Shown: piece after piece, positions 7,418-8,875 of the stretch
How positions within the stretch are numbered: position 1 is the stretch's first letter
How the letters are laid out: each line of letters starts with the position of its first letter
IMG/VR virus record: IMGVR_UViG_2693429524_000011
Source of the DNA: a virus
Lineage: Duplodnaviria > Heunggongvirae > Uroviricota > Caudoviricetes
DNA: 8,999 nt
Reading direction: 5' to 3' (one strand)
Made by a program: the position numbers and the translations under genes
Notes under the pieces: model-generated
Databases searched by the model: none
What the model was told of the DNA's origin: nothing
What the model saw: the letters and a program-made list of their open reading frames with translations, nothing else

Positions 7418-7558
7418 TTACTCAAAAAAAAGCGACGAGAAAATCAGCATCAACGAACAATAAGCGCCAATACGTGATAACAAATGGCAGCCATATTTAT
7501 CTGCAGTATAAGCAATGGACAGGATAACCACACCAGAAACCGTCAGCATAAAATCCAT
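7418..7558 (-). CDS. Candidate 44-aa hydrophobic small protein (not in the ORF track, which omits ORFs under 60 aa)
   Basis: Hand translation of the minus strand from ATG at 7558: MDFMLTVSGVVILSIAYTADKYGCHLLSRIGAYCSLMLIFSSLFFE*, with stop at plus 7418-7420. GGGGAAG lies about 7 nt upstream of the ATG. It has two hydrophobic stretches and sits in an AT-rich intergenic region. Confidence 0.35.
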   Translation of the reverse strand: MDFMLTVSGVVILSIAYTADKYGCHLLSRIGAYCSLMLIFSSLFFE

Positions 7559-8203
7559 TTGAACTTCCCCGGACAAAATCGACTCATCTAAAGATTTACA
7601 GCTCTTTTTATTATCAATATGTTAAAAGTAAAATAAACAGATGTTCAATAACACGAATACAAAAACGTGCTGAAATTCAATGAATCCATTTCTGTGTCAT
7701 CAATTAATAGTGATAAACATCCGGCTTCTTCCACCATCGCACCGGACAGGCGGCTATGAGGGGACAACGCCGCGCTCCGTTAACGCGGTAAACCCCGGTG
7801 TGTATCGTTTTTGATTATCCCCGCACACTCGCGCAGAAGGAATTCCCCGTCGGGCTACGGTCATGGTTAATGCGGGAATACGGCGACGATACAGCGCATA
7901 ATGTGTCAGGCTTGAATACCTTTATCCGTTAAAAGGGATATCAGTTAAGTTATCCCGTGTAGGGTATAAGCCATTGTCGAGACCACTCATTGAATGGCCT
8001 CTGCAATAACCGATGTCTTTCCATCAGTCCGCCACCACAAAGAATCTTTTTTGCCTTAAGGCTGGAGCTTCATCTTTCAGTGGCTGCCAGTGTTATTTCC
8101 CCACTTACTGGCTTGGGTTGTTTCGCTGTACTGCCGTAACTGGTTGCCAAGAATAAATTCTGGTTTCATTATCAAGCCCACCCGTAGATAGGCTTTGTCA
8201 TGG

Positions 8204-8491
8204 CTACTTCTTCAGAAATGATTCGATGAATTCACGTCGGGGATGACGATAGTTCAGAATATCTTCTGGCATCCTCATAAAGCGGTTGTTGCCGTCTTTG
8301 GCAGTAACAAAACAGCTGTGAACTCCGCAGACATCCGTTTTTATTGTGTCGCTATACTCAAAAAGCAACTGAGCCATCTTCTCTTGCCATTCTGGCGGCA
8401 TAGCCTCCATGAATACTCGCGGCATCACGCAGAACGGCGCATGCGTAAGACCAAACCACAGTTGCAGGTCTTTACGATATTCTTCATCCAT
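8204..8491 (-). CDS. Hypothetical 95-aa prophage cargo protein with a possible His/Cys metal-binding motif
   Basis: ORF-track protein MDEEYRKDLQLWFGLTHAPFCVMPRVFMEAMPPEWQEKMAQLLFEYSDTIKTDVCGVHSCFVTAKDGNNRFMRMPEDILNYRHPRREFIESFLKK. It is in late-operon orientation between the Rz remnant and cos, with a weak AAAGG Shine-Dalgarno. Contains H17, C21 and C55-x2-H58-x-C60. I do not recognise the family. Confidence 0.55.
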   Translation of the reverse strand: MDEEYRKDLQLWFGLTHAPFCVMPRVFMEAMPPEWQEKMAQLLFEYSDTIKTDVCGVHSCFVTAKDGNNRFMRMPEDILNYRHPRREFIESFLKK

Positions 8492-8535: not shown

Positions 8536-8709
8536 TAAATCCTGGTATTTGTAATGACTGGCTCTTATCTCAACGCAGCCCCTTACCGCGCGCAAGATGC
8601 TCAATATCAAGCATCAGCAATGAGATGTTTAATCTGGATTCACTCCAGAAGTGTTCACCACCCTGTCTACAGAGCCAGATGTGAAGAATGATAAGTAAAA
8701 TTATCGCTA

Positions 8710-8875
8710 TCATCGAAGGCATTGCGTCCTGATGTATTCCTGAAGCGTTCTCAGTGCTGTTTGGTCGCTGATGATTCCGTCCCGGATACCGAGAACGTTT
8801 CGTCCAGCAACTGGAGAGAGTTCGACGGTGGCATCATTGCCCATGCCGGAGGCGCTGGAGGCTTCGGCTGAGGAT
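8710..8875 (-). pseudogene. Rz: C-terminal fragment of the Rz i-spanin, truncated at its 5' side by the IS insertion
   Basis: Minus-strand translation from the IS boundary: SSAEASSASGMGNDATVELSPVAGRNVLGIRDGIISDQTALRTLQEYIRTQCLR*. It resembles the lambda Rz C-terminus (...RLITMQKQLEGTQKYINEQCR*). Stop at plus 8710-8712. Confidence 0.7.
8751..8875 (-). pseudogene. Rz1: C-terminal fragment of the Rz1 o-spanin, embedded in Rz in the +1 frame; signal peptide and lipobox missing
   Basis: Minus-strand +1-frame translation PQPKPPAPPAWAMMPPSNSLQLLDETFSVSGTESSATKQH*, proline-rich like the lambda Rz1 stretch ...CVKPPPPPAWIMQPPPDWQ.... Stop at plus 8751-8753. Confidence 0.6.

Follow-up and report, generated by a model that had tools for sequence, protein, structure and literature searches.

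The stretch of DNA analysed here, 8,999 nucleotides of a viral record (Caudoviricetes; IMG/VR IMGVR_UViG_2693429524_000011) and referred to throughout as the window, is a defective lambdoid prophage of Escherichia coli. On its minus strand, at positions 7418-7558, lies a short open reading frame (ORF) for a hydrophobic peptide. Taking together its existing annotation, its sequence identity to an annotated gene, its predicted helices, published ribosome profiling and the pattern of synonymous change, we lean, with modest confidence, towards the view that this is a genuine, translated gene for a two-helix inner-membrane microprotein, carried as a moron-like accessory gene of E. coli lambdoid prophages. 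The gene is already known as an annotated hypothetical of these prophages and the finding is an ordinary one; nothing suggests a new kind of system.

Identity and distribution of the ORF

The ORF reads MDFMLTVSGVVILSIAYTADKYGCHLLSRIGAYCSLMLIFSSLFFE and ends in a TAA stop codon. While the coordinates and sequence given for it in the first-pass annotation of this DNA hold, the length given there, 44 residues, was wrong: the ORF comprises 46 codons (141 nt including the stop) and translates to 46 amino acids; an alternative TTG start at 7576 would give a 52-residue product. The window matches NZ_CP148401.1 at 100%, and the Prokaryotic Genome Annotation Pipeline (PGAP) annotates the ORF there as WP_000347013.1, a "hypothetical protein" that is also annotated in strains S88, O157:H7 SS17 and EDL933. 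The peptide is 100% identical to ECs_1538 (ECs1538, NP_309565.1) of prophage Sp6 in E. coli O157:H7 Sakai, whose gene lies at 1,561,112-1,561,252 (+) of NC_002695.2 (1,560,971-1,561,111 of BA000007.2). The ORF is a member of the ECs1538/WP_000347013.1 protein cluster, with the same sequence at the same position in a lambdoid prophage. It had been described as unlisted, which is accurate for the ORF track used in the first pass, because of the length cutoff of that track alone, and inaccurate elsewhere, given the PGAP and Sakai entries. Through the cutoff, a gene that is part of standard annotation was missed, and short "unlisted" ORFs need a RefSeq check first. The exact peptide sequence is present on at least 1000 contigs and has an uncharacterised UniRef entry (A0A066T8Z3_ECOLX); a full-text literature search by WP_000347013, ECs1538, NP_309565 or the peptide itself matched no paper.

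Of 5426 complete E. coli genomes, 734 have the 261-nt region of the ORF, at 788 sites in all; O157:H7, O104:H4 and S88, an extraintestinal strain, are among them. Identity is 99% or higher in 619 of the 734. Only two of 50,697 phage records contain it, and neither peptide patterns nor a degenerate DNA pattern on the conserved core gave a match in 185,579 species-representative genomes. A word-based search of 5.8 billion proteins returned near-identical E. coli entries and fragments and nothing else, and 1.84 billion representatives, searched exhaustively by profile, yielded only the ORF's own cluster, fragments and spurious repetitive translations (P0028, P0029, P0033 and P0034). When the peptide was compared with Pfam, NCBIfam, PHROGs and PADLOC at E values up to 1, no family matched, including the toxin and holin families in those libraries. 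A metagenome scan yielded 58 loci, almost all identical, and was the source of the variants L090 and L137 discussed below. The ORF is an orphan confined to E. coli prophages, and ECs1538 is one of many uncharacterised prophage microproteins, with ribosome-profiling support and no homologue elsewhere.

Transcription and translation in E. coli O157:H7 Sakai

Strand-specific RNA sequencing and ribosome profiling of strain Sakai by Hücker et al. (2017, PMC5597208) include ECs1538 among 250 "short annotated genes". In lysogeny broth (LB) the gene had 57.6 reads per kilobase per million (RPKM) of RNA and 26.1 RPKM of footprints, with a ribosome coverage value (RCV) of 0.46 and footprint coverage of 0.98; this exceeds both thresholds by which that study calls an ORF translated (minimum coverage 0.5, minimum RCV 0.25). 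The corresponding values were 32.7 and 7.3 RPKM, RCV 0.23 and coverage 0.81 in the brain heart infusion (BHI) control, where the mean read counts behind them were 7 and 4, and 2.1 and 0.6 RPKM, RCV 0.29 and coverage 0.13 under cold plus salt stress. Since O157 genomes have a single copy of the region, the reads map uniquely. In the same uninduced cells the late genes immediately upstream gave 10.1 (ECs1536) and 3.0 (ECs1537) RNA RPKM, and the higher RNA level of ECs1538 in LB points to a separate promoter in the uninduced lysogen.

Predicted membrane topology

AlphaFold2 models the peptide as a two-helix hairpin (helices 2-22 and 24-44, mean pLDDT, the predicted local distance difference test score, of 72), in agreement with the two hydrophobic segments that had been noted earlier and that are evident in the Kyte-Doolittle profile. 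Residues K21 and R29 lie in the loop joining the helices, which by the positive-inside rule would face the cytoplasm. PredictProtein, as applied to ECs1538 by Hücker et al., likewise places the product in the inner membrane with two transmembrane helices. The peptide is probably a small two-helix inner-membrane protein, as judged from these models. The earlier proposal of a small, truly translated membrane peptide thus gains support of moderate strength from the annotation, the strand-specific ribosome profiling and the two predicted transmembrane helices, and, as described below, from a modest synonymous excess and from better conservation of the ORF than of the adjacent spacer.

Translation and transcription signals

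As the first-pass annotation had proposed, a Shine-Dalgarno (SD)-like GGGGAAG precedes the ORF at 7564-7570 on the minus strand, with 5 nt between its end and the ATG. Its GGGG pairs with the anti-SD sequence at -5.7 kcal/mol and is kept in L090 and in the diverged copy L003 (strain SHP24); for ECs1538, an SD 4 nt upstream (-3.6) has been predicted (PMC5597208). The top-scoring minus-strand site in our promoter scan, a sigma-70-like TTGAAC-18 nt-TAACAT at 7619-7648, would place the transcription start near 7612 and give a 5′ untranslated region of about 54 nt. Its TAACAT -10 box is identical in the copies that have diverged by 18%. The scan also marked a promoter-like site on the opposite strand, TTTACA-17 nt-TATGTT at 7595-7623 (+). 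The two -10 boxes, TAACAT and TATGTT, overlap and form a bidirectional promoter-like core with predicted starts about 18 bp apart. This core overlaps a run of 35 nt (approximately 7598-7632) in which the window, PPyecE and SHP24 do not differ and L090 and L137 have one change each; the run is the best-conserved stretch of the surrounding AT-rich cassette between the window and SHP24.

A divergent core of this kind is what a type I toxin-antitoxin locus might look like, in which a membrane-damaging peptide would be silenced by an antisense RNA transcribed from 7595-7623 over its 5′ leader. The peptide would suit such a role in its size and hydrophobicity (46 residues, under the 60 that delimit such toxins, with a grand average of hydropathicity, GRAVY, of 1.11), the overlapping promoter-like sites fall in the best-conserved 35 nt, and Hok/Gef loci occur elsewhere in such prophages. 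Nonetheless, we regard a type I locus, to which the first-pass annotation had also likened the ORF, as unlikely. A plus-strand RNA starting at about 7630 would miss an mRNA starting at about 7612, and the two would overlap only if the mRNA started far upstream. No plus-strand terminator accompanies the site, and folding is unremarkable both for the opposite-strand RNA (z = +0.84) and for the mRNA leader with the ORF (z = -0.24). Rfam, searched at E values up to 1, returned noise only and no antitoxin RNA, and the lack of Pfam and NCBIfam matches extends to any Hok, Ldr, TisB or Ibs models in those databases. Moreover, two short helices are predicted and not the usual single transmembrane helix, and footprints during unstressed growth in LB argue against a tightly silenced toxin and, indirectly, against strong toxicity.

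Evolutionary constraint on the ORF

Four lineages of the ORF could be compared, namely the window type, L090 and the two B types, L003 and L137, which differ from the window at 17-18% of the bases in the ORF. The reading frame is intact in all four, the B types at 18% base divergence included; the B-type product reads MGLMLT(I/V)AGVIVLFIACNADKYGYPLLSRIGAYCALILIFSSLFF, while L090, on metagenome contig OBWF01002647.1, encodes an intermediate protein variant (S14F, C24Y, L36V and E46D). The start codon and SD are kept in three of the four. The Nei-Gojobori ratio of non-synonymous to synonymous rates (dN/dS) between A-type and B-type copies is 0.23-0.31, compared with 0.55-1.7 in the other five frames. 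Pooled over 10 distinct ORF sequences there were 17 synonymous and 16 non-synonymous changes, an excess of synonymous change with P = 0.001-0.017 for a neutral synonymous fraction of 0.25-0.32.

Alignment of the window with L003 gave 82% identity for the ORF, with one gap opening, at the terminal T-tract; 82% with one gap opening for the convergent neighbour ylcI; 66% with five for the spacer between the 3′ ends of the two genes; and 79% with none for the AT-rich region upstream. Conservation of the ORF exceeds that of the spacer (Fisher P = 0.003 for L003 and P = 0.0003 for L137). These comparisons indicate moderate constraint on the ORF, partly at the protein level.

A number of observations weigh against a genuine gene. 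In length the ORF is by itself at chance level: when the 1.5-kb gene-poor stretch was dinucleotide-shuffled, 97% of the shuffles held an ATG-initiated ORF of at least 46 codons, with a mean of 3.5 in each, and shuffling of just the local 411 nt gave one 41% of the time. Among random ORFs, 0.9% of those from the wider region and 5% of those from the local one attain a GRAVY as high, and the coding strand of the ORF is 44% T, a composition that favours hydrophobic codons and readily yields hydrophobic ORFs. For the single pair of window and L003, a neutral simulation with the observed 3:1 transition:transversion ratio retained the ORF and its start with P = 0.46 and gave at most 13 amino-acid differences with P = 0.24, so that neutrality is not rejected, and the skew among codon positions (9, 6, 15) is not significant (P = 0.12). 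The 140 nt of non-coding DNA upstream are conserved about as well as the ORF (79% versus 82%), and constraint may thus act partly on DNA or RNA. The 3′ end of the ORF holds a T8 homopolymer (7424-7431, minus strand), with T9 and T10 variants in some genomes, and its length alters the C-terminus (...FFE, ...FF or ...FFFLSKLY); this could be slippage-prone variation or sequencing error. Rare frameshifted variants are a further point of this kind, as is the SD duplex, which is weakened to -3.1 in L137. BPROM, as run in PMC5597208, places the ECs1538 promoter 248 bp upstream (linear discriminant function, LDF, of 8.0) and not at the site we favour, and no convincing intrinsic terminator follows the ORF in our scan of the window, nor was one predicted in PMC5597208. 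In that study, too, the RCV of ECs1538 falls under the mean of short annotated genes (1.55), the read counts are low, with single-digit means behind the BHI figures, and the same thresholds were passed by hundreds of unannotated ORFs.

Many of these points would be accommodated if the ORF were incidental or a proto-gene, with the AT-rich cassette kept for its promoter or hitchhiking with a recently spread module and with translation of the pervasive, low-level kind but no selected protein function. To the chance-level length, the non-significant single-pair simulation, the conserved upstream DNA, the varying C-terminus and the low counts, this explanation can add that the near-identity of 619 of the 734 genomes makes conservation mostly a matter of recent ancestry, and that the ORF is an orphan among 1.84 billion representative proteins and 185,579 species genomes. 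We take it to be possible, if less probable than a genuine gene. Set against it are the pooled synonymous excess, the lack of any internal indel within the ORF at 18% divergence versus five in the adjacent spacer, the retention of start codon and SD in three of four lineages, and footprints over 98% of the ORF in LB.

The AT-rich cassette and its prophage setting

In the window, minus-strand gene order follows the lambda late operon, running from a lysis-gene remnant through two small hypothetical genes to the ORF, cos, Nu1 (6174-6719, minus strand) and terminase A (4274-6199, minus strand). The ORF has the direction of the late operon and ylcI runs against it, a point that the first-pass annotation had not noticed. 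Context was compared over 143 loci that contain the ORF, drawn from collections of annotated genomes, viruses and metagenomes. In most of them Rz precedes the ORF on the same strand; the packaging module beyond the ORF is of one of two kinds, with either lambda Nu1/A or HNH and an HK97-like terminase.

The ORF sits on an AT-rich cassette of 427 bp (7286-7712) that comprises the spacer, the ORF and its promoter region. At 36.8%, its GC content is below that of the window (53.3%) and of the terminase genes (54%). On alignment with the lambda-like phage ev207 and a DLP12-like prophage, the cassette proves to be absent from both, and there ylcI adjoins the GC-rich block ahead of bor/iss. Examples of morons are lambda bor and HK97 gp15. 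The moron concept is that of independent transcription units lying between conserved phage genes (PMC3594210). The ORF shares with morons the insertion of 427 bp between genes that are adjacent in related phages and the deviant base composition, and has no convincing terminator of its own; insertion, composition and apparently independent expression together suggest the moron pattern.

The GC-rich block on the other side of the cassette (7713-7900) is 57% GC and 87% identical between diverged prophage types; 4144 of 5426 E. coli genomes carry it, at 10,812 sites of which 692 are on plasmids. From its place in lambda-like and DLP12-like prophages, between ylcI and bor/iss, it is probably the bor/iss upstream region; bor/iss itself is missing from the window. 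The block contains no conserved ORF (the window has TAG where relatives have TGG) and has no Rfam match, and a consensus fold of four sequences gave no compensatory pairs.

Elsewhere the window prophage is reduced. At 4042-6199 terminase A is fused to a C-terminal piece of the minor tail protein gpL, followed by gpK (3293-4036) and gpI (2754-3395), and this junction implies a deletion in which the head genes and the majority of tail genes were lost. Just past the window, IS1203 interrupts the lysis cassette of the source genome. Next to the truncated lysis-protein remnant lies a second small hydrophobic ORF (8570-8722, minus strand) of 50 residues, MPSMIAIILLIILHIWLCRQGG..., annotated as the hypothetical WP_053878044.1 and matching phrog_11822 (E = 2e-37). 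A 95-residue ORF at 8204-8491 (minus strand) matches only positions 139-230 of the 233 in phrog_3527 and may be a truncated gene; just upstream of it, on the same strand, is a strong terminator-like hairpin (8536-8517).

Given its position, the ORF could also be imagined as a lysis-timing factor, an antiholin or holin modulator that would be produced from the late transcript and act on the class II holin encoded upstream. It is co-oriented with and follows the lysis cassette, with Rz upstream in most loci, and a small peptide with two transmembrane helices would be apt for the task. The location itself speaks against this reading, since the ORF lies outside the holin-endolysin-spanin block, beyond the GC-rich block, on a cassette that many similar prophages lack. 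The peptide matches no holin family, has no charged hydrophilic C-terminus (it ends ...SSLFFE), and its RNA exceeds that of the late genes in uninduced cells; these prophages already have a full set of holin, endolysin and spanin genes upstream, and in the window prophage the ORF is intact although IS1203 has destroyed the lysis cassette. The holin-modulator role floated in the first-pass annotation accordingly finds little favour here, and we think it improbable.

The convergent ylcI gene

The neighbour of the ORF is a YlcI/YnfO gene at 7100-7285 on the plus strand (Pfam DUF3950, E = 9e-19; NF041551). The two genes are convergent, as described before, and the separation of about 130 bp given then proves to be 132 bp between the 3′ ends; this spacer (7286-7417) is poorly conserved and contains a weak palindrome only (7290-7304). 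YlcI/YnfO matches weakly the DNA-binding part of a HicB-like PHROG (E = 0.012), and its sequence pattern (NIRFP..., then two helices) resembles the ribbon-helix-helix fold, so that it is probably a ribbon-helix-helix DNA-binding protein. Among the titles and abstracts listed by a literature search, none reported a functional study of YlcI, YnfO or DUF3950. In ev207, ylcI is truncated to 44 residues. About 60 nt upstream of ylcI, between cos/Nu1 and ylcI, a 12-nt inverted repeat spans 7002-7042 (AATATGACGCAG / CTGCGTCAAATT, with a 17-nt spacer) and could be an operator or a packaging-related site.

The presence of a DNA-binding-like neighbour had led to speculation about a toxin/regulator pair, in which YlcI/YnfO would neutralise or repress the peptide. 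In keeping with this, ylcI follows the ORF in 137 of 138 informative loci, and the HicB-like match, weak as it is, is to a DNA-binding domain. The proposal does not stand up well. The genes are convergent and are not co-transcribed in an operon; the ORF has 788 sites in 734 genomes and ylcI-like DNA 9564 sites in 4184 genomes, about 12-fold more sites; and L090, the sole exception among the informative loci, has the ORF without ylcI, its sequence becoming unrelated DNA about 90 nt past the ORF stop. Operator-like repeats common to the promoter regions of the two genes amounted to short chance-level matches that are not conserved in the B types, and PADLOC gave no match. As the close linkage is accounted for by a distance of 132 bp inside one recombining module, we consider such a pair very unlikely. 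A type II toxin-antitoxin system with a ribbon-helix-helix antitoxin was likewise rejected, the convergent genes not being co-transcribed and the partners not obligately co-occurring.

A more plausible link between the two genes may be found in E. coli K-12. On the map of prophage DLP12, ybcW presumably runs in the late-operon direction at the same position as the ORF. The ybcW-ylcI pair of K-12 DLP12 has been listed as a convergent excludon (PMC12288877). Like the ORF, ybcW is a small gene convergent on ylcI. By this analogy, and given that the 3′ ends are separated by only 132 bp with no good terminator, our guess is that overlapping convergent transcription is a likelier link between the ORF and ylcI than a toxin/antitoxin relationship.

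Proposed role and comparison with known systems

Under the reading that we favour, of a genuine moron-like membrane-protein gene, the 46-residue peptide would fold as a hairpin of two hydrophobic helices and insert in the inner membrane. Its gene would be a moron-like unit on the 427-bp AT-rich cassette between ylcI and the bor/iss upstream block, with low-level transcription in the lysogen starting at a promoter of its own, for which the conserved TTGAAC-18-TAACAT core some 55 nt upstream is the probable candidate. During lytic growth the Q-antiterminated late transcript would read through the gene as well, given that the ORF points the same way as the late operon and sits between Rz and cos/terminase. 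What the peptide does in the membrane is a matter of guesswork: it might act on an inner-membrane component of host or phage, for example by blocking DNA entry or by modulating a membrane protein, and we would guess at a membrane-level interaction in preference to a toxin role.

A more adventurous version, which we put forward as a long shot, is that the ORF represents a young orphan gene, found in E. coli only, with a de novo origin in the AT-rich cassette; it would have spread by recombination to about 13% of complete E. coli genomes, would give the lysogen an advantage at the membrane and would have its expression tied to that of ylcI. The advantage, if there is one, might be exclusion of superinfecting phage DNA, or the peptide might be a new two-helix toxin of a type I-like kind; the tie to ylcI would come about through convergent overlapping transcription from the bidirectional promoter. 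Should phage exclusion or an envelope change prove true, the ORF would be a small addition to the functions of morons and to young orphan genes.

Among class II holins and pinholins, S21 of phage 21 has 68-71 residues and two transmembrane domains. The ORF resembles this class in being small, in its two hydrophobic helices and in its location in a phage late region, and differs in being at least 20 residues shorter, without a charged C-terminal tail or a dual-start motif, and in its placement after Rz and not before the endolysin, in prophages that already encode a class II holin. With type I toxins (Hok/Gef, Ldr, TisB, Ibs and ShoB) it shares a length below 60 residues, high hydrophobicity and carriage by a prophage; it is set apart from them by the absence of a family match, by two short helices in place of one transmembrane helix and by footprints in normal growth.

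The likeness to morons extends further, as the ORF is inserted and AT-rich, has its own promoter-like sequence, gives more RNA than the flanking late genes in a lysogen and has a predicted membrane product. Unlike morons, it has no recognisable terminator and is co-oriented with the late operon, and its product has no similarity to any described moron product. The closest counterpart is ECs1538 itself. The Sp6 backbone has HNH and an HK97-like terminase, whereas the window has lambda Nu1/A and is defective, and yet the 46 residues are identical and the order of Rz, GC-rich block, ORF, convergent ylcI and terminase genes is the same in both.

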